Below are positions 44,446-59,578 of a stretch of DNA of 64,000 nt, piece by piece. The translations under genes were made by a program, and so were the position numbers. Under the pieces are notes generated by a model. It searched no databases and was not told the DNA's origin. It saw only the letters and a program-made list of their open reading frames with translations. This stretch comes from a virus (taxonomy: Duplodnaviria > Caudoviricetes). Numbering within the stretch: position 1 is the first letter of the stretch; each line of letters begins with the position of its first letter. The stretch covers positions 160,001 to 224,000 of IMG/VR virus record IMGVR_UViG_3300011868_000001; one strand, written 5' to 3'.

Positions 44446-46845
44446 ATGAGTACTGTACTTCCACAATACCCTTTCGATCCGACGGGGCTCGCGACGTCGA
44501 ACAAGGTGACCGAGACTCAGGCGATTGAATCGCGTGGGATGTTCGATCATTATTACATCATTCCCCGCAGCGGTCCGTTTTATGCGGAGACGGTAAGGCT
44601 ACGGCTATACCCTGCCGGTGCAAATATCAATAACCCGGCGGGCGGCGAACCGCTCGAAGAAGGACTGCATTTTAACTTCGGGTATCATTTCGCCCATGCA
44701 TCACATACCATTGGAAAGCCGGTATACGGGGCGATTTCTTTCTATGACCGTCAGTTGACCGGTCAGCTGCGCATGGAGTACCAGACACTCGGTGGTGACT
44801 GGGTCCTCGACGACCAGAAAATGACCGAGCTGTTGGGTAACGTGGCGTACAACCCGCGTACCGCAACCTGGGAACAAGTGGTCGAGTTGCCGCATCAATT
44901 CCCGGTGGTTAACCACGACTTTAACATCGACGATTTCGTCGGTATGAGTGAAGTGGTTGATCAGCTGGAAGACATCACCGATGCGATCAATCAGAAGACT
45001 GCAGGTGGTATGGCCGATCACGTCAATGCCAAGAACAACCCGCACGAAGTCAGCAAGGATCAAGTCGGTCTGGGGTTGGTGGATAACTTCCCCACAGCAG
45101 CGCCTGCTGAGGCCACTGGCGGCACGGCCAACAACCGCTTCATGACGCCCCTGCGTACTAAGCAACTGATCGACGCTACCGCAACAGTCGCCCTGAACAA
45201 TCACATGGGCGATACGACCAACCCCCACGGTGTCACTAAGACTCAAGTAGGGCTGGGTAACGTTCAGAACTATGCGGGGGCGACCCAGGCTGAAGCGGAA
45301 GCAGGGGCCAGTAACGCCCGTTACATGACTCCGCTGCGTACCCGCGAAGCCATTGAGGCCATTGTCGGGGTAGCATTCAACGCCCACGTCAACAACAAGA
45401 ACAACCCGCATGGCGTGACCAAGGCGCAGGTCGGTCTGGGCAATGTGCCGAACATCGGTGTCGCCACGGATGCCATGGCATTGCAAGGCCAGTCGGATGC
45501 CGGGATCATCACCCCGCGTTTGTTGTCCATGGTGCTGAGCGAAACGGTTGGCAGTGGGGTCACTGAGCACATTGCTGACTCCAATAACCCACACGGTGTA
45601 ACAAAAGCACAAGTGGGCCTGAGCAACGTTCAGAACTATGCAGTGGCTACCGAGGCCGTGGCACGCGATGCCACCTCTAATGCGCATTACATGACGCCGT
45701 TGGCTGTCCGTTATGCTGTCGCTGCACTGGTCGGGGAAGGCGGCGTTGGTGATCACATTACCAACCTCAACAACCCGCACCGAGTGACTGCTGCTCAGGT
45801 GGGTACGTACTCTGCTGAAGAACTCGATGCACTGCTCAACGACAAACTCGACGACACTGCAGCGGCTGCCGATGCCTTGGCTGTATTTGGCATGTCGCAA
45901 GGCGAACTGGAAGGGTGGATCGGAGGTCTGCGGGCAGGCAACAGCGTACTGTTCGATAACAAGACCTACGCTCAAGTCAAAGAAGATATCCTGGCGGGTA
46001 AGGCTGCTGATGCTGCTAAACTCGATGGACGTACCTACGCACAGATTGTTGCAGCCATTGGTGAAGCCGTTGATGGCGGCAATACGCAGCATAACGTGCC
46101 ACCGGTAGGTCCGGTTGAAGACGCCAACGGTGACTTCGGCGATGCCCCTCAGCATTGGTTGAAGATCGGCAAGTTCCAACAGCCGCTGGATTATCAATAC
46201 GGTGACATGACCCTATTGATCACTGGCGGGCGCGATGAAGACTCCGAGACTGAACGGCACCACACCATCTTGCTGGAACTGTCGACCACCAACGACTACC
46301 CGGTCGATGGCCTGAGCTTCACGCCGCTGCTGGTGCGCGCCCCTCGGGTTAAGCACCTGACTCCAGCAGAAGAGCCGATCCGGATCGGTTATGTGGTCAA
46401 CCACGGTGATGCGATCCCACGTCCGTGGATCGATATCTACATCCAGACCATCGGTCAACGTGCAGGTTGGACGGTAACGGAGCTGTCGAACAAGTTCTTC
46501 GTTCCTGAAGTGTTCGATCCGATCAATGAGGTCTCTGACCTGCTCTTGGTCGAACCTGCAGGCATCGTCTATCCGCCGGTCATCTCCGATGGCTCTGCTG
46601 AGATCATTGCGCTGCAGGCATTCTCCGAGCGCAAGGACAACCCGCATCAGGTGACGAAAGCGCAGGTCGGCTTGGGCTCAGTCCCGAACTACCCAGCTGC
46701 AACTTCCGCCGAGGCACTGGCCGGGACAGCCACCAACCGTCTCATGAGTCCGGCCACCACCCAGGCCAGCGTCGACCAGGCCATCAACAGTCTGTGCGAT
46801 CACCTGTCTGAAGTGGTCGACAATGCTCTACCGCTGTTTGCTTAA
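44446..46845 (+). CDS. tail fibre protein with NPH repeats (phiKZ gp146-like)
   Basis: YPFDPTG N-terminus; six NPHxVTKxQVG(LG) repeats. Confidence 0.8.
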   Translation: MSTVLPQYPFDPTGLATSNKVTETQAIESRGMFDHYYIIPRSGPFYAETVRLRLYPAGANINNPAGGEPLEEGLHFNFGYHFAHASHTIGKPVYGAISFYDRQLTGQLRMEYQTLGGDWVLDDQKMTELLGNVAYNPRTATWEQVVELPHQFPVVNHDFNIDDFVGMSEVVDQLEDITDAINQKTAGGMADHVNAKNNPHEVSKDQVGLGLVDNFPTAAPAEATGGTANNRFMTPLRTKQLIDATATVALNNHMGDTTNPHGVTKTQVGLGNVQNYAGATQAEAEAGASNARYMTPLRTREAIEAIVGVAFNAHVNNKNNPHGVTKAQVGLGNVPNIGVATDAMALQGQSDAGIITPRLLSMVLSETVGSGVTEHIADSNNPHGVTKAQVGLSNVQNYAVATEAVARDATSNAHYMTPLAVRYAVAALVGEGGVGDHITNLNNPHRVTAAQVGTYSAEELDALLNDKLDDTAAAADALAVFGMSQGELEGWIGGLRAGNSVLFDNKTYAQVKEDILAGKAADAAKLDGRTYAQIVAAIGEAVDGGNTQHNVPPVGPVEDANGDFGDAPQHWLKIGKFQQPLDYQYGDMTLLITGGRDEDSETERHHTILLELSTTNDYPVDGLSFTPLLVRAPRVKHLTPAEEPIRIGYVVNHGDAIPRPWIDIYIQTIGQRAGWTVTELSNKFFVPEVFDPINEVSDLLLVEPAGIVYPPVISDGSAEIIALQAFSERKDNPHQVTKAQVGLGSVPNYPAATSAEALAGTATNRLMSPATTQASVDQAINSLCDHLSEVVDNALPLFA

Positions 46846-46915: not shown

Positions 46916-48490
46916 ATGAGTGTACCACCAATTATCCAGTACCCGCTCGATCTGTCGGGTACGTCGCCAACGAACCGAATCGTTGGTGAGCGTCGAGAAA
47001 TCTCGACCAATGCAGAACGTGTGTTTGTCCCAAAGGCAGGTCCTTTCTACACCGAGTCGTTTGTAATCTACAACGATGAGACTGGCGAGCCGCTTCGGCC
47101 GGTAGACGACTACCTTTTGGTACAGCCGTTCGCCCAAGCATCGCTGCGCAGCGGTAAGGATGTTCAATCTGCCGTTGTTCTGAAGATGCAAGCCCCTGTT
47201 ATCGTCCGCATGGACTACCGCGTTGTGGGTGGTGAGTACTCGTGGAACCTGGGAGCGCTGGCTGACCTTATCGCGGAACTCAATCTCGATGAGCGCGCCG
47301 TTAAATGGGGATCGATCATTGGTCGTCCCACCATGTACCCGGCCGCACCACACATCCATGACATCGGCGATACCTATGGGTGGGAATACGTGGTCTGGCA
47401 ACTGGAGCGTGTCACTAACGCCATTCTGGTTGGTGACGAGGCGTCCCACGAAGAACTGCGTCAACAGATGCTGTATCTGCGTGACCAGCTGCAGGCCAAT
47501 ATCGATGCAGTCGATGGCAAGGTTGACGAACATCTCAATGACTTCGAAAATCCACATCGCACAACGAAGGCGCAGGTCGGGCTCGGTTCGGTAGACAACT
47601 TCCCGACAGCCACTTCGGTCGAAGCCAACACCGGTACAGCCAACAACCGCTTCATGACGCCGGCGACGACCACCACCTTGTCGACGCGCATCGCTCGTGA
47701 AGAGGTCAATGCCCACGAGGCGAAGAAGAACAACCCCCACGATGTCACCAAAGCTCAGGTAGGGTTGGGTAATGTCGACAACTTCCTGACGGCTACTCAG
47801 GCACAGGGTGAATCGACCACGGTCAATGACAAGTTCATGACCCCGCTGCGCACCTACCAGGCCATCATGGTCCATGCCGGTACCTTGCTGAACGTGCACG
47901 TGAACAACAAGAACAACCCGCATGAGGTGACGAAAGCACAGGTCGGTCTGGGGCTGGTAGACAACTTCCAAACCGCGACCCGTACCGAGGCCATTGAAGG
48001 TACATCCAATGCACGCTTCATGACGCCGCTCAGGACCAAAGAAGCGATCGACGCCATTGCCGGTAACCTGATTCAATCACACGTCTCGAACCTCAACAAT
48101 CCGCACAAAGTCACCAAGGATCAAGTCGGTCTGGGTAATCTGCCGAATGCCATCACGCGCAGCCGGACATTGAACTCTGACGCCCACCTGCTGACCGCCG
48201 GCGGTATGTTCGATCACGTGGCCTCGGGCGATCATGACAACCGTTACGTGCGCTTGAACACCACCCAGAACACCAGTCTGCGGGTAGTGAACAATAAGCT
48301 TCAGTGCTATGTCAGTGGACAGTGGCGACAGATCTGGCCGGCGACCTGGACTAACTTTGCCGCAGAAAGGGCAAACGATCCGGTACTGGGTAACGACCAG
48401 CAAATCCAACTGCTGGTGGCCGGTGGTCGCCTATATGCAACGGTAGCTGGCGCGTGGCAGCAGGTCTGGCCTGCACTTTGGACAGACTAA
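46916..48490 (+). CDS. tail fibre protein with NPH repeats (phiKZ gp145-like)
   Basis: YPLDLSG N-terminus paralogous to the previous gene; four NPH repeats; duplicated W-rich C-terminal module. Confidence 0.8.
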   Translation: MSVPPIIQYPLDLSGTSPTNRIVGERREISTNAERVFVPKAGPFYTESFVIYNDETGEPLRPVDDYLLVQPFAQASLRSGKDVQSAVVLKMQAPVIVRMDYRVVGGEYSWNLGALADLIAELNLDERAVKWGSIIGRPTMYPAAPHIHDIGDTYGWEYVVWQLERVTNAILVGDEASHEELRQQMLYLRDQLQANIDAVDGKVDEHLNDFENPHRTTKAQVGLGSVDNFPTATSVEANTGTANNRFMTPATTTTLSTRIAREEVNAHEAKKNNPHDVTKAQVGLGNVDNFLTATQAQGESTTVNDKFMTPLRTYQAIMVHAGTLLNVHVNNKNNPHEVTKAQVGLGLVDNFQTATRTEAIEGTSNARFMTPLRTKEAIDAIAGNLIQSHVSNLNNPHKVTKDQVGLGNLPNAITRSRTLNSDAHLLTAGGMFDHVASGDHDNRYVRLNTTQNTSLRVVNNKLQCYVSGQWRQIWPATWTNFAAERANDPVLGNDQQIQLLVAGGRLYATVAGAWQQVWPALWTD

Positions 48491-48530: not shown

Positions 48531-49037
48531 ATGCTTAAGAAAATCGATTTCCAGTTCCAAGGAATCACCGAAGAACTGCTGATGGTGGACCAGTTTCTGT
48601 CAAGCCCCCATCCCTATGAACAGGGGTTAGTCAAGTATGTGTTCAACGATGCATCGTACGGGATCAACAGTCCTATGGAGTATCTTGAGCACAGTGACAA
48701 GCCAATCAAGGTCGAAGGCTATGAACGGTTGAATGCTGTTCTGTTTGGCGAGTGTCAACGCCTGGCGGCCTACTTCGGACACGCTGGGTATGTATCCTGT
48801 CACCTGTTCATCTCCCCTAAGGGATCAACGAGCTTCTCCATGCACACCGATCCGGATGATGTGGTCGTCTATGTTGTCAAAGGTGGCAAAGAGTTCGAAT
48901 CCATTGACCAGCTGGAATCTGTTAAAGCTGGTGATGTGTTATACATCCCGCGCAATCACCCACACCGTGCCATCAATACCGACAGTTCGCTTATGCTGAG
49001 CTTTGGGTTGGAGCTGTTTCTGGAGCAGAAGCTTTGA
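48531..49037 (+). CDS. JmjC/cupin-type 2OG-Fe(II) oxygenase (YcfD/ROX-like)
   Basis: HTDPDDV...KGGK...GDVLYIPRNHPHRA: HxD...H facial triad. Confidence 0.8.
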   Translation: MLKKIDFQFQGITEELLMVDQFLSSPHPYEQGLVKYVFNDASYGINSPMEYLEHSDKPIKVEGYERLNAVLFGECQRLAAYFGHAGYVSCHLFISPKGSTSFSMHTDPDDVVVYVVKGGKEFESIDQLESVKAGDVLYIPRNHPHRAINTDSSLMLSFGLELFLEQKL

Positions 49038-50074
49038 GCCTCAATAAAACCATTTACGTCAAAACCACAGGCACTTGTAACCTTGACTGTCAACACTGCT
49101 TTACCAACGGTAAGAACGGGGACAAGACCCAGTTTGACCCTGAGGTCACAGCAGAGTGGGTTAAGGCGTTTATGGCCAAGTACCCAACCGATACTCACTA
49201 CCACATGGAATTCCATGGCGGTGAGCCGTTCCTGGTGCCGTTGGAGAAGCTCAAGCGCTATGCCGATCAGTTTGTCGAGCACCCTCATGTGTCGATGTGT
49301 GCCAACAGCAACCTGACGTTCAAGTTGACAGATGCGCACATTGCGTTCATTCAGAAGTATTTCAACGGATACATTGGAACCAGTTGGGACCACTGGATTC
49401 GTTGGAGTAACGACAAGCAATTTCAGTTATGGAAACGTAATTTGGAATTGTTGAAAGATAATGGTGTGACCATTGCACTTAAGGCGTCGGTAAGTCGCCA
49501 ACTGCTGACGATGACACCTGACTGGTTCTTGGACCAGATGGAAGCCCTGGCAGTCGATGAGGTCTCACTGGAACGTCTGACCATGGACGGCAGTGCGCAA
49601 TGTAACGTCGGTATCTTCCCGGACAATGAAGAGCAAGACAACTGGTATCTAGCGCTGTATCAGCGCTATAAGGCTCGTCAAGGCCGCGTGCGCATCAAGA
49701 CACTCGACATCATTGAAGACAAGCTTAAAACCAATCGGGTCAAGGTCGATACCAACTGCCGCAACTGCGAGCAGAATCTGGTGACCATCAACTCGGACGG
49801 TTCGCTGTCCGGTTGTCCAAATGCAGCAGCAGCACTGCATCATGCGAAGTTGGAAGATGGGGTCGATGCATTCCTCAGCTCCGATGGACTGATTCAAGAG
49901 ATCACCTCAGAACTGACATGGGGTGACACCTGCCTTTCCTGCGATGTCTTTGACCTGTGTGGTGGCGATTGTCACCGCCTGCCGTGGCAGAATGGACGAT
50001 GCGGTGGGTTGAAAAATACCCTGCGTCATCTGTCAGGCCGGAATACACAATCCAATTTGATTTTGAAGGTGTGA
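49034..50074 (+). CDS. radical SAM/SPASM-like protein 1
   Basis: CNLDCQHC, HGGEP, C-terminal CRNC..GCP..CLSCDVFDLCGGDC..C. Confidence 0.9.
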   Translation: MSLNKTIYVKTTGTCNLDCQHCFTNGKNGDKTQFDPEVTAEWVKAFMAKYPTDTHYHMEFHGGEPFLVPLEKLKRYADQFVEHPHVSMCANSNLTFKLTDAHIAFIQKYFNGYIGTSWDHWIRWSNDKQFQLWKRNLELLKDNGVTIALKASVSRQLLTMTPDWFLDQMEALAVDEVSLERLTMDGSAQCNVGIFPDNEEQDNWYLALYQRYKARQGRVRIKTLDIIEDKLKTNRVKVDTNCRNCEQNLVTINSDGSLSGCPNAAAALHHAKLEDGVDAFLSSDGLIQEITSELTWGDTCLSCDVFDLCGGDCHRLPWQNGRCGGLKNTLRHLSGRNTQSNLILKV

Positions 50075-50075
50075 A

Positions 50076-50627
50076 ATGACCGAACAAATTACCCGTAACC
50101 GAATCGCGATGAATGCCAACAGCCGGATTCGCGATCGTTGCAACAGCGGTATCTCCTGGGGTACCAACAACTACCCGGCCAACTCTGATCCGGCCTGGTT
50201 CGGTGGCCCGACCAGCGGTCTGGCAGTATCCATGAGCCGCAATGACTTCTCCGGCGGTGAGCCGTCAGTATCGCAAGCGGTATCTGCCCTGCGTACATTC
50301 GCCAACCGCTTTGCTGCCATCCGCACCATCCGTATCCTGATCTACCGCAGCAAGTCGGGTTACTCCAGCGGTAACGGCAACATCCTTGAGTACGATGGTA
50401 CTGCGGTAGCCCACTCGGCGTACTCGTCTGGTGCTCATGCCAATAGCGTTGCGCTGTCGGCGATGCGTGAAGGTGTGGAGATGGACCTGGACACGCTGAA
50501 CAGTTCGCTGGACGAGCTGTGGAACGCCTACGTAGCCGGTGCCCGCAACACTGTGCTCAACCGCGAACGTGTCATCTGCCATACCAGCTGTCACAGCAAC
50601 TGTCACTGCGCCCGCGGGCGTCGTTGA
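50076..50627 (+). CDS. 183-aa protein with C-terminal CHxxCHxxCHC-ARGRR motif, candidate radical SAM substrate
   Basis: Ends ICHTSCHSNCHCARGRR; strongly biased codons; starts 1 nt after the rSAM 1 stop. Confidence 0.8.
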   Translation: MTEQITRNRIAMNANSRIRDRCNSGISWGTNNYPANSDPAWFGGPTSGLAVSMSRNDFSGGEPSVSQAVSALRTFANRFAAIRTIRILIYRSKSGYSSGNGNILEYDGTAVAHSAYSSGAHANSVALSAMREGVEMDLDTLNSSLDELWNAYVAGARNTVLNRERVICHTSCHSNCHCARGRR

Positions 50628-50661: not shown

Positions 50662-51417
50662 ATGAGCGAACAACCCACCACCCCTGCGGTAATCCCCTGC
50701 ACTGCTCCAATCGCGGTCAGTGACCTGAAGCGCAAGTTCACCGAAGACGTTGTGTTTGTTATCGACGTCGATGCCAGTAAGTTAAAAGGTCGTGCTCTGC
50801 TGACGTACCTGTCGAACCTCAACACCAATATCCATCTGCAATTTGGTAGTGTCGAGGCGACCACCGAACTGCTGCGTGATTACATGGCCTCGACGTTGCT
50901 GATCAGCATCGCTGAATTGGAAGACCTTGCTATCAACCTGCTACTGGCAGCCACTGGTCGTGCGTACACCCTTCCGTTCGAACCAGCGTCCTTCATTGAA
51001 GAGAACGAGGCGCTGATCGAGACCTGGCTCAAGCGACTGGACTCACTTCCGGCGTTTGCGCTGTACTGCCACCCGGCGCACAAAGAGGCCGTGGAGCAGA
51101 CCTACCCAGAAGACACGGACGAAAGCATGGCGGGGCTTAACTTCGTCAAGCTGATCGAGCATGAGTTGTTCCCGGTTCTGATGGCGGGCGTGCAGGAAAG
51201 TGATTACAACTGGAACCGCGTGCTGTTTAACGAGTACATCTTCGCTGGCGATAATCTGTTTAAGTTCTTTGCCAGCAAGAACAACCCGTACTTCATAGCA
51301 CTGCTCGCCGATGAATGTCCGGAGGAGTTTGGCCGTGTTCTGCCTATCATGCAGACCCTGGTGCATAAAACGACCCAATGTGTAAAGGAAATCGAACATG
51401 TATCACATCCGCAGTAA
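50662..51417 (+). CDS. hypothetical protein of the rSAM island
   Basis: Likely start MSEQPTT; overlaps the next gene. Confidence 0.75.
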   Translation: MSEQPTTPAVIPCTAPIAVSDLKRKFTEDVVFVIDVDASKLKGRALLTYLSNLNTNIHLQFGSVEATTELLRDYMASTLLISIAELEDLAINLLLAATGRAYTLPFEPASFIEENEALIETWLKRLDSLPAFALYCHPAHKEAVEQTYPEDTDESMAGLNFVKLIEHELFPVLMAGVQESDYNWNRVLFNEYIFAGDNLFKFFASKNNPYFIALLADECPEEFGRVLPIMQTLVHKTTQCVKEIEHVSHPQ

Positions 51418-52453
51418 AGCCTACGTCGAGATCGATTCTCGCGTAACGCGCGACAATCCCTATATCTCGTTCGGCAAGCACGTCGGCTACGAGTACGTCC
51501 CGGTGGCACACGAGACTGCTGCTCAACAACTCACTTACGCCCAGTCCCTCGATGACCTGAGCAGTGATGAATTCAAAGCCGCCATGAATGCAGCGTTCAC
51601 CAGCAAGGAAAAGGTGTTCATCTTCGCCGATGGCAAAACCTACCTGCGTCTGTACGCCATGGTCGTCAAAGCGCTGCTTCCATCGGTGACTCTCGATGTG
51701 TTCCGTTGGATCTTCCTGTGCAAGAAGGCAACCTTCAACGTCTCCTTGCTGAACATCCGCAAGCCGGCGTCGAACATTCTGGATGAAGTCCAGATCAATG
51801 CCAAGACCATCGAAGCACTGTTCAAGCAAGAAGACCCGCATCAGCAGGCGATGAATGAACTCATGGCAGCGGCGCCCGATGAAGTTTCGCTGGAATGGCG
51901 TATCCTGCGTCTGCTGACCTGTGACCGGGTCGGGAAGCTGCCCAAGACGCTGCGCAACATCCTGCGGCGTATCGCCCTAGCCAATACCCACGACGCCCTC
52001 GACGTCTGGGGTCGGATGATTGCCGATCCGGGCATGTGGGAGTTTGCTGGGTGTGACATGGACACCCTGATGAACGGCAACAGTGTCTTTGAAGGCACCC
52101 TGAAGTTCCATTACCTGAACAACCCGATGTTCCTGCAACCTGGTGTGTTCGAAAACGAACCGACCAAGGACTGGATTGTTGGTCTGCTCAAGGAACTGGT
52201 GCAGGTGCTGGAGTTCTGTGACGAAGGTCCGACCGCCGGGCGTACTCGTCTGATCCTCGAGCTGATCAAAGACGAGACCAACCTGCAAGACCCGGAAGCT
52301 CTCAAAGCACGGGTTGTGACCATGTTCAAAGGCGCCAAGCGTTTGGCCCTGCCGAATGCCGATTCTGGCAAGTACGATGAAAACCTCATCCGCTACGTAT
52401 TGAACGAGGACGTCGAAGTCCTGCGTCAGTGCGTCAAAGGAGCGCAGTGGTAA
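51398..52453 (+). CDS. hypothetical protein of the rSAM island
   Basis: 351 aa; AAGGA RBS; coupled to the next gene by TAATG. Confidence 0.75.
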   Translation: MYHIRSKAYVEIDSRVTRDNPYISFGKHVGYEYVPVAHETAAQQLTYAQSLDDLSSDEFKAAMNAAFTSKEKVFIFADGKTYLRLYAMVVKALLPSVTLDVFRWIFLCKKATFNVSLLNIRKPASNILDEVQINAKTIEALFKQEDPHQQAMNELMAAAPDEVSLEWRILRLLTCDRVGKLPKTLRNILRRIALANTHDALDVWGRMIADPGMWEFAGCDMDTLMNGNSVFEGTLKFHYLNNPMFLQPGVFENEPTKDWIVGLLKELVQVLEFCDEGPTAGRTRLILELIKDETNLQDPEALKARVVTMFKGAKRLALPNADSGKYDENLIRYVLNEDVEVLRQCVKGAQW

Positions 52454-53448
52454 TGGAACTGATCCCCGTAGTGAACATCCTCCAAGAGAAGAAGGGTAAG
52501 TGGAAAGAAGCTCATCTGATTCTGTTTGAGTACTGTAATCTACGGTGTTCTTTCTGCCATCAAGACCACGACTCCAAGGTGGGGTTTGACACCATCGCTG
52601 AAAAGGTCGAGACGCTCATTGCCAACACCGACCCACGGCAACCGTACGTGGTGAACATGACCGGTGGTGAGCTGTTCTTGGACGAGTTCCCTGATGAGCT
52701 GTTCGAGCAGTACTACCAAGCAGGTAAACGTATCTTCGAACACTTCGACGATGCCTTGCTGGTACTGGGAACCAACCTGGTCTATCATCGGGTGGAGCGG
52801 TTGATCAAGCTGGTCAATCGACTCTCCACTCATGGTCGGGTCCAGATCGCCACGTCGTACGATCCAGCGGGTCGTTTTGATCGCGTCAGCCGGATGCTGT
52901 TCATACACAACCTGCAGCGCGTGAAGGAATACGTCAAGACCATCAACGTGGTGATCACCAAGCAGAACATCGAGGCGTTCCTGAGTGAAGACGAAGGGTA
53001 TGAAGTCGCCTGGATGTGCGAACACTTCGATGTGTACTTCGACCACTACATCCCCAGTCAGATGTATGAATACATCCAGCCGGATGAAGACCTGATCAGT
53101 CAGCTGTACCTCAAACTCAATGAGCGCTATCCGAACTCCTATCCGATCAAGGACTGGAAGAACAATGCGTTCAACGAGACCACCTGTCGCTCGACCAAGA
53201 TCGTCAACAAAGACGGGATTGTCAGCACCTGTTGGTCCGAGGCCGGTAAGAACGCCATCTTAGATGAAGCCGAAGGCCTTAAAGCCAAGGACGAAGCTGA
53301 GATGCGGTTCGTGGAGAAATACAACTGCTTCGCTTGCGAGTACTATTCTCGCTGCGGGATGCGTTGCTTCCTCCATCACTCGTTCATTGACGACGGAAAT
53401 GATGTCTGTCAGATCAAATTGATGTTCGATAAAGTGGTAGAGGCATAA
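52453..53448 (+). CDS. radical SAM/SPASM-like protein 2
   Basis: CNLRCSFC, TGGE, C-terminal CFACEYYSRCGMRC..C. Confidence 0.9.
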   Translation: MELIPVVNILQEKKGKWKEAHLILFEYCNLRCSFCHQDHDSKVGFDTIAEKVETLIANTDPRQPYVVNMTGGELFLDEFPDELFEQYYQAGKRIFEHFDDALLVLGTNLVYHRVERLIKLVNRLSTHGRVQIATSYDPAGRFDRVSRMLFIHNLQRVKEYVKTINVVITKQNIEAFLSEDEGYEVAWMCEHFDVYFDHYIPSQMYEYIQPDEDLISQLYLKLNERYPNSYPIKDWKNNAFNETTCRSTKIVNKDGIVSTCWSEAGKNAILDEAEGLKAKDEAEMRFVEKYNCFACEYYSRCGMRCFLHHSFIDDGNDVCQIKLMFDKVVEA

Positions 53449-53618: not shown

Positions 53619-53795
53619 ATGAATGTACAAGAATTTCCCTTGACGCCTGAAGGCTATCAGCAGGCCATGCAATGGATGAAGGACGAAGGACTCGATCCAG
53701 TGGAACATGCTAACCGAGAACTGTCCACTGACGGTTACACCATTGTCAATCTGGTGAACCACCTGCGCCAACGTAAGGTCGCACAGACTGCCTAG
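53619..53795 (+). CDS. 58-aa hypothetical protein (MNVQEFPLTPEGYQQAMQWMKDEGLDP...)
   Basis: Read by hand (below the ORF-track cut-off); GAGAGG RBS; fills the gap before rSAM 3. Confidence 0.7.
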   Translation: MNVQEFPLTPEGYQQAMQWMKDEGLDPVEHANRELSTDGYTIVNLVNHLRQRKVAQTA

Positions 53796-53808: not shown

Positions 53809-54897
53809 GTGGACTTGATCCTGAAGCCAACCCAGAAATGTAACTTTAAGTGCACCTTCTGCTCGAGCACCTACTTGAGCGAAGACAATCGGGAAATTGT
53901 CGATCTGAGTCAGGTTGCACTGTTCATCAAGCGTTTCCCTGAGACGCGTACGGTGATTGTCAATGGGGGCGATCCGTTGATGATGCCGCCAGAGTACTAC
54001 TGGGACCTGATCGACATTCTCGATCAGTTGGGTTCTCAGGCCAGCATCTCCTTTACCACCAACCTCTGGCCGTTCTATAAGAAACCTGAATTGTGGGAAG
54101 AGCTGTTCAAACACCCCAGAATTGGCGTGACCACCTCGTTCCAATACGGTGAGGGGCGGCTTAAAGGTGACGGCACACCGTTGACCGAGGCTGAGTTCAT
54201 TGCCATGAGTGATCTGTTTCTGGAACGGATCGGCTATCGTCCTGATTTTATCGCAGTGATCGACAAGGACAATGAACACACTGTCCTTGATACGGTCCGG
54301 TTGGCTAAACGCCTAGGGGTGGAAGCCAAGGTCAACTATGCGGTGGCCTCAGGACCTGTGGTGGTCAACAAAGGCATCACCATGGGACATGCTGAAAGCA
54401 TGTACACCCAAGCTGACATGTATAAAGCCTACATCGAGATTTACGATGCAGGTCTCATGCAGTGGGAGTTCAACACCAAGCAGATGGTCAAGCGCATCAA
54501 GACGCAGAACACCATCTGCCCATTGAGCCGGGACTGCGACAGCGGGATTCGAGCCTTGCAACCTGGTGGCGGCTATTACTCCTGCGGGGCCTTTGGCGAT
54601 GACCTGAAGTATCCCATCGACTTTAAGAAAGAGATGGCCGGTGAATTCTTCCGTCCCTTGAGCAATCAAGAAGAGCTGTGGTCGATGAAGGAGGCCTGTA
54701 ACGAGTGTCCGATGTTCCTGATCTGCAATGGCTGTCGTAAGACCGTGACCGACACCAAGCGGTTAGGTCTGGCTGAGCATCACTGCAAGACCATGAAGAG
54801 CATTGCACCGCGGATCATCGAACTCAACGGGATGCAGGACTACCTGGTCCCCACCCCTTACGTGGACGAGTCTGTCCAGATCATCGCCCGAGGCTAA
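53809..54897 (+). CDS. radical SAM/SPASM-like protein 3
   Basis: CNFKCTFC, NGGDP, C-terminal CP...DC..SCG..CNECPMFLICNGC..C. Confidence 0.9.
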   Translation: MDLILKPTQKCNFKCTFCSSTYLSEDNREIVDLSQVALFIKRFPETRTVIVNGGDPLMMPPEYYWDLIDILDQLGSQASISFTTNLWPFYKKPELWEELFKHPRIGVTTSFQYGEGRLKGDGTPLTEAEFIAMSDLFLERIGYRPDFIAVIDKDNEHTVLDTVRLAKRLGVEAKVNYAVASGPVVVNKGITMGHAESMYTQADMYKAYIEIYDAGLMQWEFNTKQMVKRIKTQNTICPLSRDCDSGIRALQPGGGYYSCGAFGDDLKYPIDFKKEMAGEFFRPLSNQEELWSMKEACNECPMFLICNGCRKTVTDTKRLGLAEHHCKTMKSIAPRIIELNGMQDYLVPTPYVDESVQIIARG

Positions 54898-54899
54898 GC

Positions 54900-55142
54900 A
54901 TGGCGTATATCGATCCTTTTGAGCGCAGTCCGGTAGCCGACTCCCTGTCGGCTGAATCCGCCAAGCTCGATGAGCAGCTCAACGCAGTCTTCCAACGTGA
55001 AGCCGAGTTCTTTGAGCGTCAACTGGCCCATCGTAACATGCGTCTAAACTCACGGGGAGTGGCTCAATTGGAAATGAACCTACGGGATTTTCTGAACAAG
55101 GCCATTGCTGACATCGAAAAGGACCTAGACGATGCTGGCTAA
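54900..55142 (+). CDS. small helical hypothetical protein
   Basis: 80-aa ORF in operon. Confidence 0.7.
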   Translation: MAYIDPFERSPVADSLSAESAKLDEQLNAVFQREAEFFERQLAHRNMRLNSRGVAQLEMNLRDFLNKAIADIEKDLDDAG

Positions 55143-55187: not shown

Positions 55188-56192
55188 GTGGGCCGACCGA
55201 AAATCAACCTCAGCCTGAACCCCACTTATTATTGCAACCTGCGCTGTGAGTTCTGCTACCTCACGCCAGAGCAGCTGGGCGATAAGACCCGTCTGGAGCT
55301 GGATAAGTTCGAAGAAGTGCTGCTCGATATCTTGCAGCATTACGATGTCGGTCATGTCGACCTGTATGGCGGTGAAGTCCTCTTGTTGCCCCCGGAATAC
55401 CTGCGGGGTCTCAAAGACATCCTGCACACCTACGGGATCGATGATATTGTTCTGGTGACCAACCTCACCCTGACCAATGAGATCACCGAGGACTTGGACT
55501 TCGATCTGTCAGTGTCGTATGACTTCGGGGCACGGGAGATGCATGAGCGGGTGTTCAACAACCTGCTGGCATTGCCCAGACCGTACACCATCCTGACCCT
55601 GGCCAGCCGGAAGTTTCTCGATACGGTGAGTGTGGATGAATTCGTCCAGACCATGAACCTGTTGAGTGGGGCCAAGGACGTCGAGATCAAGCCGTACAGC
55701 GCGAATCAGGCTAACACGCATGCAGTGTACTACGATGAGTTCGAACGCTTCGTATGGGCGGTTATAGAGCATCCTGACAGGCAGTTCTACTTCGAGAATG
55801 AACGCCAGATCAAAGAAGCGGTTGAGGGCCAACGTAACGCCTTCAGCGATGACCACCTGTACATCACTCCGACTGGCCAATTGGCCGTTTTGGAGTTCGA
55901 TGCCAATGACAATGAGTTCTTCCTCCCGGTTGATGGAGTGGAAGGCTATCTTGCGTGGTGTGCAAAAGAAAAGCAGGCCGTGGCCCAGAACGGGCATTGC
56001 GGGACCTGTACCTACATGGGACATTGCCTCTCCGAACATTTGCGGGAGGTGAAAGACTTGTCCCATTCCTGTAACGGTTTTAAGGGGTTACTTGACCTAT
56101 GGACAACCCACACCTCGTCCAACACCGACAACGCCTGGAGATCACGCTTGATCTATTCCGAGGCTGTGCCAACCACTGCGCCGGATGCATGA
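55188..56192 (+). CDS. radical SAM protein 4
   Basis: CNLRCEFC, YGGE, C-terminal CGTCTYMGHC..SCNG. Confidence 0.9.
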   Translation: MGRPKINLSLNPTYYCNLRCEFCYLTPEQLGDKTRLELDKFEEVLLDILQHYDVGHVDLYGGEVLLLPPEYLRGLKDILHTYGIDDIVLVTNLTLTNEITEDLDFDLSVSYDFGAREMHERVFNNLLALPRPYTILTLASRKFLDTVSVDEFVQTMNLLSGAKDVEIKPYSANQANTHAVYYDEFERFVWAVIEHPDRQFYFENERQIKEAVEGQRNAFSDDHLYITPTGQLAVLEFDANDNEFFLPVDGVEGYLAWCAKEKQAVAQNGHCGTCTYMGHCLSEHLREVKDLSHSCNGFKGLLDLWTTHTSSNTDNAWRSRLIYSEAVPTTAPDA

Positions 56193-57127
56193 TCGACCGC
56201 ACCATCGGTGGCGATGTCGATGATCTGCCAGAACTCAAAGCCCTGATCGAGGAGATGACCGCCGCCGGTTATGTTGCTTTCGATCTGGGCGTTGGACCAA
56301 CCGACTACATGACGGCCGATAACAAGGACGAAGTCATGGTCCATCCGGTTTTCCAAGCCATGGCACAGTTGTTTCATCAGGTGACCTTCAATGCTGCATT
56401 CCTGGAAAAGGACCTGACGAAATACACCCGCATGTGTCAGGAGATCGATCAGTGCATCCCAGGCAAACCGATTCGTTTCCTGATCCCGGCTGCTCCCAGT
56501 TTCTTCAAGACCAATAAGTTCAGTGACATGATCAACATGAAACTGAACCATGTCAAAGACAGTCTGCACGATGCCTTCCTCAACGAGGCGGGCTTTGTGG
56601 TAAACTGTACCAAAGACACGGTCGACGATGAATTTGAAGAGATGCTGGTCAAAGGGTTCGATGTCGAGTTTCCGGTCGATAAGGATGACATCCTGAACAT
56701 CCCCTATGGTCGGGCACCGGTCAAAGACCTTCAGGTGGCGCAGCAGATTCAGCGCATGAGTTATCGCATCAGTCACTATTACAAATTGCTCAATGGTACC
56801 GACGAGCGCCGGAAGAATCCTGATCTGTGCCTCAATACCGGGACCATGACCAATCTGCTGTATACCGATGGCAAACTGTACTGGGTACCCTTCCTCAAGG
56901 ACGATTGTCCGTTCCTTGAAGATGCGTTTACCGTGCCCAAGCCCTGGACTATGGATAACCTGCTGGCGACGCGTCAGAAGGCGCTGGATGCCTCTCTGGA
57001 GTACCTCAAAGACACCCCCTGCATGCAGTGTCCTTACATCTCCAGTTGTGCTGAGAAAGGCATTACCAGCATCATGCAATTTATGGGTATCAAGGACTGT
57101 CTGGTAGGGCTTGACTATGCACAATGA
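56099..57127 (+). CDS. atypical radical SAM-like protein 5
   Basis: CANHCAGC; GPTD where GGEP is expected; C-terminal CMQCPYISSC..C. Confidence 0.75.
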   Translation: MDNPHLVQHRQRLEITLDLFRGCANHCAGCMIDRTIGGDVDDLPELKALIEEMTAAGYVAFDLGVGPTDYMTADNKDEVMVHPVFQAMAQLFHQVTFNAAFLEKDLTKYTRMCQEIDQCIPGKPIRFLIPAAPSFFKTNKFSDMINMKLNHVKDSLHDAFLNEAGFVVNCTKDTVDDEFEEMLVKGFDVEFPVDKDDILNIPYGRAPVKDLQVAQQIQRMSYRISHYYKLLNGTDERRKNPDLCLNTGTMTNLLYTDGKLYWVPFLKDDCPFLEDAFTVPKPWTMDNLLATRQKALDASLEYLKDTPCMQCPYISSCAEKGITSIMQFMGIKDCLVGLDYAQ

Positions 57128-58160
57128 ACGCGTCTCTCAAACCTTTAACCTTGGGCTTGAAGTGCTCAAGGGGTGTGGGTACAGTTGTTCGGGCTGTACG
57201 GTCGACAAGAACTTTGCCGACTTCGATGTACCAGAAGATGATGCCCGCGCTATCCTTGGTCTGCTCGCCGATCTTAAAGCGCAAGACTGGCGAATGCTCG
57301 AGCTTAAGATCGGGCCGACAGACATCACCAGCTCCGACAATGGCTTTGCCGTGTTGCAGCACCCGGTGATCAAAGAGATCGCCTCGTACTACAAGGTGCT
57401 GACCTTAAACGCTGCCATGCTCCATGACCGTAACCTGCCTGAGTTGGCAGAGCTGGTCGACGAGTTGATGCCGGGCAAGTACGTTAACATCGGCACCCCG
57501 TTTACCTTGAAGAACGTGGCCAATGAAAAGTACATGGCGATGATGAAAGAACGCTTGGCGTACTTCCAGAGTCTGTTGAAGAAAGCGTCTTTCACTCGCC
57601 TGTATGCCACGATAAACATTGAGGAAGAGAACCTTAAGCAGTTCAACCCTGAGTCGTTCAGTCTGATTCGTAACTATGACTTCGGCTCTGGGATCGATAA
57701 GGTGATTGAGTTTCCGTTTGTCAATGCTCGCCAAGGGTTTGACAACCTGCTCATTGCCGAACGCTTCAAGCGCGACATCAAGCAGTTTGCTGATTTTGCC
57801 AAGACGCGTATCAACACCCATGAGTTCGTGCCGTTGATCCCCGGTGTCAAAGAAGGCTATGAGTACACGTACCGTACCGGCAAACTGTACTCGACCATTG
57901 TGCTGGTTGAGAACCTGACGCTGTACAAAGACAAGTATGAGTTGGCAAGGCCATGGACGGGCGAGCGGCTACTCAAGCACCGAGAAGACGCCTACATCAA
58001 CAACCTGGTCAAGTACAGCGAACATCCCCAATGTGGGACGTGTTGTTTCTTGGATCATTGCGCCCGGTGCGACGTCCAACATCTGATGGAAGAGACGGGC
58101 AGTGACACCTGCCTGATCGAGATGCATAACCGCTGGGATCTGGCTCATGTAGAGCACTGA
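57117..58160 (+). CDS. atypical radical SAM-like protein 6
   Basis: CGYSCSGC; GPTD; C-terminal CGTCCFLDHCARC..C; paralog of 56099-57127. Confidence 0.75.
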   Translation: MHNERVSQTFNLGLEVLKGCGYSCSGCTVDKNFADFDVPEDDARAILGLLADLKAQDWRMLELKIGPTDITSSDNGFAVLQHPVIKEIASYYKVLTLNAAMLHDRNLPELAELVDELMPGKYVNIGTPFTLKNVANEKYMAMMKERLAYFQSLLKKASFTRLYATINIEEENLKQFNPESFSLIRNYDFGSGIDKVIEFPFVNARQGFDNLLIAERFKRDIKQFADFAKTRINTHEFVPLIPGVKEGYEYTYRTGKLYSTIVLVENLTLYKDKYELARPWTGERLLKHREDAYINNLVKYSEHPQCGTCCFLDHCARCDVQHLMEETGSDTCLIEMHNRWDLAHVEH

Positions 58161-58173
58161 TGAGGAACCGTCA

Positions 58174-58608
58174 ATGGACTCGTTATACACTATCGTCGAC
58201 AACGTGGCAATTCCTGAGTGGCTTGTCGATGCTGCAATGTGCGAACCGAATAAAGGGTCCATTGACACGCCCGAGATTTGGAGCTTTGTAGAGAAACAGC
58301 TCCTGCCGCTGGTCATGCGTCAGACTCAGGCACAACCGACCCTTTATGTATCGTCGAATCACGTGCACATCAGTGCAGCGGGCCTGACCCCGCACGATCA
58401 TCTGCCCAACGCATTTACGTCAGTGCTTTATCTGGTAGATGCCGAAGGACGGTTGATCATCGACCCCGATGGGATCAATGAACGGGTCAAACCGGCGGCT
58501 GGTCGATTCGTCATTTTCAAAGGTGAAACCATTCATGCGGTGGAGAAATCGCCGCAGAATGAATTGCGTATTTCGCTGGTGAGCAACTATGAATACCCTT
58601 CCGTATAA
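58174..58608 (+). CDS. 2OG-Fe(II) oxygenase-like protein
   Basis: PHDH...SVLYL...GRFVIFKGETIHAV...RISLVSN. Confidence 0.75.
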   Translation: MDSLYTIVDNVAIPEWLVDAAMCEPNKGSIDTPEIWSFVEKQLLPLVMRQTQAQPTLYVSSNHVHISAAGLTPHDHLPNAFTSVLYLVDAEGRLIIDPDGINERVKPAAGRFVIFKGETIHAVEKSPQNELRISLVSNYEYPSV

Positions 58609-59020
58609 GGCCTTCCAACGACTCTATGACGAGCTGGTGCAAGAACACAGCGACGCATTTGAGTTAATGGAGTTTGTCATTGATGATGAACTCGTCAACA
58701 ACGCCATGAAGTATTTCGAGGCCGCGACCTTTCCGCTGATCTATCCGGCCAAGAGCTATGCAGTGGCGATCATCTATGCCCACAAGCTCAGTGAGATTTA
58801 TGGTCTGGATATCCACACGGTCCTCGATGACAAGGACCTGTTCCTTGGCCAAGACCCGTACTTTGTCCCGTACAGTGAAGACCCGGCGACGTACGAGGCC
58901 ATCCTTCAGCGCTTAAAGCACAAGCCCAACTGGCTGGAATCGGGGTGGGCTCCGAAAAGCGTTCAATACTGCTTGCTCGAATGCACCGAGGCAGGCATCC
59001 AATCATTGACGGAGGTGTAA
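58589..59020 (+). CDS. hypothetical protein of the rSAM island
   Basis: 143-aa ORF overlapping the upstream gene and abutting the next. Confidence 0.75.
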   Translation: MNTLPYKAFQRLYDELVQEHSDAFELMEFVIDDELVNNAMKYFEAATFPLIYPAKSYAVAIIYAHKLSEIYGLDIHTVLDDKDLFLGQDPYFVPYSEDPATYEAILQRLKHKPNWLESGWAPKSVQYCLLECTEAGIQSLTEV

Positions 59021-59578
59021 ATGGACACGCACTTGTTGTGGGCGACGCCGGTGGCGCGGATCAATGTGGCTGATCAGTTCGACATGGCGGCCTGGGCTGA
59101 TGAAGTCTTTGCCATGTACACCATGACCAATGGCGAAGACGACCGGCAGCGGTTCATCGACCCGGATATCTTCCCCGTGATCCTGAAGATGCGTGATGAA
59201 GTCATCACCCCGGCGGTCAATGCCTTCTGCAAGGAACACTTCGGACAAGACATGGAGAAATTCTATGTCGAGACCAATGGCAAGTGGATCGTTGAAGGCG
59301 AAGGCCTCTACGCCCATCTGCATCCTGGCAGCGTGCTTTCGGCTATCTGCTATCCAGGTGACTCAGCCAATGGGTTGAACATGTTCGACCCCAGGCTCAA
59401 TGCCATGCGAGGCTACCCGAAACGGATGCGTAATCATCACTTTGCCAACTTCCGTATCAGCCCTAAGCAGGGGGATGTCTGGATCTTCCCGAGCTACGCG
59501 CAGCACAGTGTCTCGCACGTGACCGAGGAAGTCCGGCTGTCGCTGCTGCACGAATACTACATGACCGATAACCTGTAA
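59021..59578 (+). CDS. 2OG-Fe(II) oxygenase-like protein (HxH type)
   Basis: AHLHPGSVLSAICY...FDPR...GDVWIFPSYAQHSV...RLSL; GGAGG RBS. Confidence 0.8.
   Translation: MDTHLLWATPVARINVADQFDMAAWADEVFAMYTMTNGEDDRQRFIDPDIFPVILKMRDEVITPAVNAFCKEHFGQDMEKFYVETNGKWIVEGEGLYAHLHPGSVLSAICYPGDSANGLNMFDPRLNAMRGYPKRMRNHHFANFRISPKQGDVWIFPSYAQHSVSHVTEEVRLSLLHEYYMTDNL

Follow-up and report, generated by a model that had tools for sequence, protein, structure and literature searches.

What is the function of a small phage protein that ends in a regular run of cysteines and histidines and is encoded in the midst of radical-SAM (rSAM) enzymes? The question is raised by a gene at positions 50076-50627 (+) of a 64,000-nucleotide window (positions 160,001 to 224,000 of IMG/VR record IMGVR_UViG_3300011868_000001) from a virus genome of 253,747 nt. 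A preliminary description made from the sequence alone took the product, here called T (target protein), as a candidate rSAM substrate with a C-terminal core that would receive thioether or His crosslinks and possibly His hydroxylation, or alternatively as a fibre protein with a metal- or Fe-S-binding tip. The observation itself is confirmed: the ORF encodes 183 aa, its only cysteines are at residues 22, 168, 172, 176 and 178, and its ATG lies 1 nt after the TGA of the first rSAM gene, which ends at 50074. The opposite strand has a stop and no competing gene. The (CHxx)3 motif occurs once in six frames of the whole genome, and the chance expectation for the motif plus an RxRR-stop is about 2e-8. 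The described codon bias also holds, since T has a self-consistent CAI rank of 16 of 230 genes, the highest in the cassette, as expected for an abundant product, whereas the first rSAM gene ranks 158. One correction is needed: the conserved unit is three C-H-x-S/N repeats followed by R-x-R-R, and Cys178 is present in only 38 of 200 homologues.

How widely is this C terminus conserved? No Pfam or NCBIfam model matches T, and PHROG 35144 (unknown function) matches only weakly, but a word search gave 66 homologues and a profile search gave 662 representatives at 50% identity. Of 210 unfiltered sequences examined, 200 carry C-H-x-x-C-H-x-x-C-H and about 187 end in R-x-R-R. The residue two after His is Ser in 186, 109 and 130 of 200 for repeats 1-3 and otherwise mostly Asn or Ala; it is Ser in 186, Ser or Asn in 194, and Ser, Ala or Asn in 199 for the three repeats. 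In a 149-row alignment whose rows were filtered for the tail, C168, H169, C172, H173, C176, H177, R180, R182 and R183 are invariant. The C-terminal core (50577-50627, residues 168-183) is far more conserved than the body (residues 1-167), with a mean top-residue frequency of 0.82 against 0.39. Nevertheless, the repeat number varies from one or two to about ten. (L- and P-numbers below denote loci and homologous proteins compared here.) The repeat is expanded to about ten units in L017:9992-10675, P0069 and L084/L116, with an unchanged enzyme set in L017. The tail also occurs on variable bodies of 125-609 aa. Two proteins of 587 and 609 aa (P0216 and P0217) end in the identical tail, so the tail and probably the body can sit at the end of much larger proteins, while on three contigs of one MAG (L109:6062-6879, L115:6016-6776 and L128:1846-2681) pairs of short proteins (125-140 aa) have the same tail on an apparently different body and are followed by one divergent rSAM of roughly 395 aa.

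Is the body merely a leader? AlphaFold2 predicts a confident alpha/beta fold with a long hairpin (pLDDT 88, pTM 0.81), whereas the tail has a pLDDT of about 50. There is no signal peptide and no hydrophobic N-terminal stretch (median best 12-residue hydropathy 0.55 over 214 proteins). Thus, the part of the preliminary description that allowed for a structural domain is supported, but a long leader is not. No solved structure matches T: Foldseek returned none at E<=0.001, a VIA search gave a best Z of 5.1 on a designed helical protein, an Atlas search gave TM<=0.33, a feature search stayed under 0.9, and a profile search against the PDB also found none. The absence of a match does not prove a new fold. 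Predicted viral structures that match include a 296-aa protein of Atu_ph07 (TM 0.59) and three myovirus proteins of 500-660 aa. A homotrimer prediction of T scored 0.00, which is no evidence either way.

What surrounds T? The genome is that of a PhiKZ-like jumbo phage close in gene order to Pseudomonas phage pPa_SNUABM_DT01, with a spike, PAAR and two tail-fibre-like virion genes (44446-46845 and 46916-48490, +) directly upstream of the cassette. All genes of the cassette lie on the plus strand. It begins with a minimal JmjC/cupin oxygenase (48531-49037; PF08007) with an invariant HxD...H, followed by r1 (49034-50074), a radical SAM/SPASM protein, and T. Downstream of T are fam1 (50662-51417), a partner of unknown function with a confidently predicted fold but no solved match; fam3 (51398-52453), of unknown function; and three more radical SAM proteins, namely r2 (52453-53448) and r3 (53809-54897), both with SPASM motifs, and r4 (55188-56192), which keeps only the second auxiliary-cluster Cys set plus a conserved His. 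These are followed by a degenerate rSAM-like pair, r5 (56099-57127) and r6 (57111-58160); a 2OG-Fe(II) oxygenase-like protein (58174-58608), which is optional; fam6 (58589-59020), a 143-aa protein of unknown function; and a 2OG-Fe(II) oxygenase (59021-59578; PF13759). Two small ORFs inside the cassette (53619-53795 and 54900-55142; 58 and 80 aa) are not conserved enough to enter the core families. Profile searches of fam1, fam3 and fam6 against the PDB found no solved match, the fam1 model has no clear structural match, and Atlas hits of fam3 to GAP1-N domains scored under 0.9 and were not accepted.

Does T ever occur without these enzymes? All 80 viral loci fetched with T carry rSAM genes, and clustering shows a fixed core of cupin, r1, T, fam1, fam3, r2, r3, r4, fam6 and 2OG oxygenases. 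The rSAMs are distinct orthologous groups, 20-37% alike to each other but 30-60% or more to their orthologues in distant phages, and r3 is the most conserved enzyme. Among 68 non-redundant complete loci with an RxRR end, r1, r2, r3, r4 and fam1 are in all 68, fam6 in 64, cupin and fam3 in 63, r5/r6 in 29, and a B12-binding rSAM (probable methyltransferase; L093:16420-17985 and 19 other loci), absent from this window, in 20. With three complete loci lacking RxRR included, fam1 is in all 71 and fam3 in 66. Conversely, of 21 metagenome loci chosen by r3 alone with at least 6 kb upstream, 19 have T, one is a truncated contig cut off at fam1, and one divergent cassette of 21 kb (L201) has cupin, r1-r4, fam6, four r5/6-like genes and a weak fam1 but no recognisable T within about 10 kb on either side. 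In several close relatives (L179:10001-11427, L182, L006 and L007) r3 is interrupted or about 300 nt longer, suggesting an intron or other insertion in this gene. In cultured phages, the same 15 records hold r3, fam1 and fam6, spanning PhiKZ-like Chiangmaiviruses and the T4-like Atu_ph07 and Phosso, and the five inspected all encode T; fibre-like genes precede the cassette in both groups. Lack of conservation of the motif, or homologues commonly occurring without rSAM genes, had been named beforehand as grounds for rejecting the substrate reading, and neither was found. Overall, the earlier interpretation is partly supported, since the chemistry it proposed remains inferred from sequence and linkage, and its metal-binding alternative is not excluded.

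The cassette is not confined to phages. An exact motif scan of 185,579 species genomes found 32 contigs, 20 of them titled as Bdellovibrionota and several of megabase length. In these, the cassette lies among housekeeping genes (smc, lolA, lspA; pilM, prepilin peptidase; prs, L25, pth) rather than in prophage, and the set stays together with shuffled gene order and often with S74 fibre genes nearby. In addition, fam1 is in 16 of 401 sampled genomes of the phylum, and most of their r3 proteins form one supported clade (99/95). Some Bdellovibrionota T variants (L160:9008-9670, L161:6882-7469, L162:4283-4918 and L169:10294-10623) have irregular tails with one or two Cys and extra His or Pro, yet they still end in RxRR and keep r1-r4, fam1 and mostly fam6.

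Where might T act? The best evidence comes from Atu_ph07, in which the gene between r1 and fam1 is gp170: counting from gp180 gives masses of 66.07, 21.66 and 31.89 kDa for gp176, gp177 and gp170, exactly those in the published virion table. This distant homologue has the same tail and aligns to the T profile (HHalign probability 99.2 over the last 72 columns), and the Foldseek match of T to the 296-aa Atu_ph07 protein has a TM of 0.59. Table S5 of PMC6102473 lists gp170 with 8 peptides and 35% coverage, most abundant in the top gel slice (slice 1) despite its size; by our count only 2 of 39 proteins of 25-40 kDa with two or more peptides peak there. By contrast, gp164-169, gp171 and gp172 are absent from the list, as are all cassette enzymes. 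However, the particles were PEG-purified and no reductant is listed in the loading buffer, so disulfides or an ordinary SDS-resistant oligomer could explain the shift. Independent hints are the structural-gene codon bias of T and homologue P0161, which lies in a syntenic cassette and is fused to Peptidase_S74 (E 1.5e-11), a chaperone of trimeric fibres (PMC10769870); T itself has no S74 domain, and other homologues carry a Gly-rich domain. The virion table of Ralstonia phage RP31 is uninformative because RP31 has no T homologue: the same slot behind its two fibre genes (L090:14172-21742, ORF70-76) holds a different cassette with a 125-aa Tyr/His-rich protein without Cys, four rSAM-like proteins and an MgoB-like oxidase, and this slot may be a swappable modification module. 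The AP-J-162 paper contains no proteomics of its own.

What chemistry might the enzymes perform? All family hits of the rSAMs are far below cut-offs, so chemistry cannot be transferred. Nevertheless, r1 has His before GGEP in 59 of 60 orthologues and 8 conserved SPASM Cys, and its best weak hits are the cyclophane maturases FxsB, YhhB, AmcB and ChlB, with which it shares FHGGEP. Such enzymes link His-C2 to C-beta of the residue two along (PMC11499958), which fits H-x-S/N. Fully ligated against open auxiliary clusters separate C-C formers from thioether formers (PMC8326336); r3 also has 8 conserved SPASM Cys and hits anSME weakly, whereas r2 has 7, like thioether formers with an open iron site, although ligation is inferred from counts only. 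r5 and r6 lack the aromatic residue before the third cluster Cys and have GPTD-type loops (GPTD in place of GGE in r6), and they are possibly non-catalytic or scaffold Fe-S proteins. The cupin family PF08007 includes the His and Arg protein hydroxylases NO66, MINA53 and YcfD. A natural experiment is provided by one clade whose T has four CH repeats and a Gly-rich end in place of RxRR: it keeps only r1, r3, fam1, fam3 and 2OG enzymes and lacks r2, r4, fam6 (0 of 3 loci) and the cupin in the 20 kb examined, and no r4 orthologue was found in a 36-kb fragment from these RxRR-less phages. This suggests that r1 and r3 serve the CHxS repeats and the rest the Arg end, but it is a single clade (100/99 support) and hence one evolutionary event, and the missing genes could lie elsewhere in those genomes.

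Taken together, we favor, with a probability of about 0.6, that T is a tail/fibre-associated virion protein and the dedicated substrate of the surrounding cassette. In this view, the body folds in the cytoplasm of the infected cell while the 16-residue tail stays flexible; fam1 and/or the rSAMs would engage the tail, and the radical-SAM/SPASM enzymes would oxidatively cross-link it before assembly. The most likely division of labour is that r1 forms three-residue His-to-Ser/Asn cyclophanes in the H-x-S/N units, that r3 and r2 act on the Cys residues (thioethers or oxidation), that r2, r4, fam6 and the JmjC cupin act on or need the terminal R-x-R-R, and that optional 2OG oxygenases and B12-rSAMs add hydroxyl or methyl groups. 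The product would be a rigid Cys/His/Arg-rich knot that helps lock T into a stable assembly on the particle or forms a binding tip for the Gram-negative surface, and Bdellovibrionota plausibly use the same cassette for a prey-contact structure. Whereas the motif, its conservation, the predicted fold, the gene linkage and the virion presence of a distant homologue come directly from the data, the substrate relationship, each reaction, the location on the fibre and the biological purpose are our inferences. That T is a virion protein is likely and that its tail is a covalent substrate somewhat less so, while a His-Ser cyclophane made specifically by r1 is less likely than not. A bolder version, possible but less likely than not, is that phages and predatory Bdellovibrionota share a multi-enzyme radical pathway that turns the C terminus of a structural protein into a polycyclic knot (His-Ser cyclophane plus thioether, hydroxylated) displayed on the particle or cell surface, where it covalently stabilises the appendage or binds a conserved feature of Gram-negative envelopes, so that RiPP-type chemistry builds a virion part.

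Other readings are each considered unlikely, the least so being that the tail is an unmodified or barely modified metal or Fe-S ligand (3 Cys and 3 His on a short helix) onto which the cassette builds or loads a metallocofactor. Cys and His are indeed the invariant residues, AlphaFold draws residues 170-178 as a helix, which would put i, i+4 Cys on one face, and r4, r5 and r6 look like degenerate Fe-S proteins. However, the Ser/Asn two residues after each His and the RxRR end are nearly as conserved as the ligands, the variable repeat number suits a repeated substrate unit better than a fixed metal site, and r1-r3 keep intact SAM-cluster and SPASM motifs typical of peptide-modifying enzymes. 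One may also argue that T is a true RiPP, with the body as a folded leader or carrier and the modified tail cut off to act as a metallophore, antibacterial or host modulator. A compact invariant core beside multiple tailoring enzymes and the same tail on variable bodies would fit, and the 35% coverage of gp170 does not show that the tail is on the virion, but there is no protease or exporter among the conserved cassette families and no signal peptide, the body is a conserved predicted fold with a homologue in virions, and the S74 fusion points to a fibre-type assembly.

It is about equally improbable that the enzymes modify something else (neighbouring fibres, DNA bases or a host surface molecule) and that T is a co-located structural or scaffold protein. 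Six rSAMs exceed what a 16-residue tail needs and suggest further substrates, the upstream fibres are His-rich repeat proteins, RP31 has four rSAM-like proteins in the same slot with no Cys-His tail, and L201 lacks a visible T. Against this, T stays inside the cassette across unrelated phage groups with different fibres and in bacterial chromosomes, its tail is far more conserved than its body, and tail variant and enzyme set change together in one clade. A heme-binding reading was rejected, because c-type cytochromes have CxxCH in an exported protein whereas the spacing in T is Cx3CH and overlapping and there is no export signal.

Literature searches found no description of this cassette, no observed modification of it and no report of a phage structural protein matured by radical-SAM chemistry; papers on DT01, FLC6 and S13 list these genes as unexplained or guess at DNA repair, and a jumbo-phage survey does not mention radical SAM. 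The cassette offers four uncharacterised orthologous rSAM groups with one obvious, short, nearly invariant candidate substrate, so new crosslinking chemistry is directly testable by co-expression and MS, and cultured carriers exist (DT01, RSL2, RSF1, FLC6, S13, Atu_ph07 and Phosso). Moreover, its presence in both phages and Bdellovibrionota, two kinds of predator of Gram-negative cells, points to a shared attachment or entry function.

How does this system compare with known ones? The HXS antiphage system (HxsA with HxsB/HxsC/HxsD; TIGR03976-03979; PMC13128918), which the preliminary description invoked, likewise matures a protein rather than a short peptide, with repeated His-x-Ser and basic residues, by several rSAM enzymes plus a small partner, and gives a +8 Da change on an HxS repeat. 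However, the link holds only at the level of the H-x-S motif. The best scores to HxsB (TIGR03978) and HxsC (TIGR03977) are 27.5 bits against cut-offs of 370 and 267.9, and of the partners scanned, fam1 and fam3 have no hit to HxsD (TIGR03976). HxsA has a signal peptide, a peptidoglycan-binding domain and N-terminal repeats without Cys and works in the periplasm for host defence, whereas T has no signal peptide, no Pfam or NCBIfam domain, a C-terminal Cys-His core and four to six unrelated rSAMs plus oxygenases, and is phage-encoded and probably virion-associated. The S74-chaperoned phage fibres and Bdellovibrio MAT adhesins (PMC10769870) are linked to T by the S74 fusion of one homologue and by the S74 genes that often flank the cassette in Bdellovibrionota, but T has no beta-helix or beta-prism fold and no signal peptide, and no MAT protein is known to be rSAM-modified. 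Triceptide synthases (3-CyFEs: YhhB, HaaB, HtkB, ChlB and FxsB; PMC11499958) act on aromatic-x-x three-residue motifs including His-x-x, and T has three H-x-S/N units; r1 resembles them in its FHGGEP loop and lack of an N-terminal RRE. Yet triceptide precursors are short leader-core peptides, Cys flanks every motif here, and r1 scores about 50 bits against cut-offs of 310-445 (FxsB 49.6/370, YhhB 48.4/445, AmcB 45.6/425; ChlB E 0.002). Ranthipeptides/SCIFF (CteA/CteB, PapA/PapB) and Cxxx-repeat targets (TIGR04114-04119) share the period-4 Cys spacing with Ser/Thr/Asn acceptors nearby, as in the SCIFF core, and by Cys count alone the 7-Cys SPASM of r2 is like that of thioether formers. They differ in that T is a 183-aa protein with a predicted fold rather than a short precursor, its His are invariant, its tail matches no SCIFF or Cxxx-repeat model (best E 6.7), and the rSAMs leave no room for an N-terminal RRE (first cluster Cys at residues 11-28). 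anSME and QhpD are minimal rSAM/SPASM maturases of folded proteins that, without an RRE, act on a Cys motif in a larger protein; r1 and r3 have the 8-Cys SPASM, and the top PDB hit of r3 is anSME (E 0.003), but TIGR03942 scores are 48 and 32 bits against 349, T has no sulfatase CxPxR motif and is no sulfatase or dehydrogenase subunit, and four orthologous enzymes instead of one accompany a probable structural viral substrate. Thus, in our reading the system would work like HXS, anSME or QhpD, by rSAM maturation of a folded protein, and borrow motif logic from triceptides and ranthipeptides while failing the family cut-offs of each: the enzyme superfamily is known, whereas the orthologous groups and the inferred class of substrate are new.
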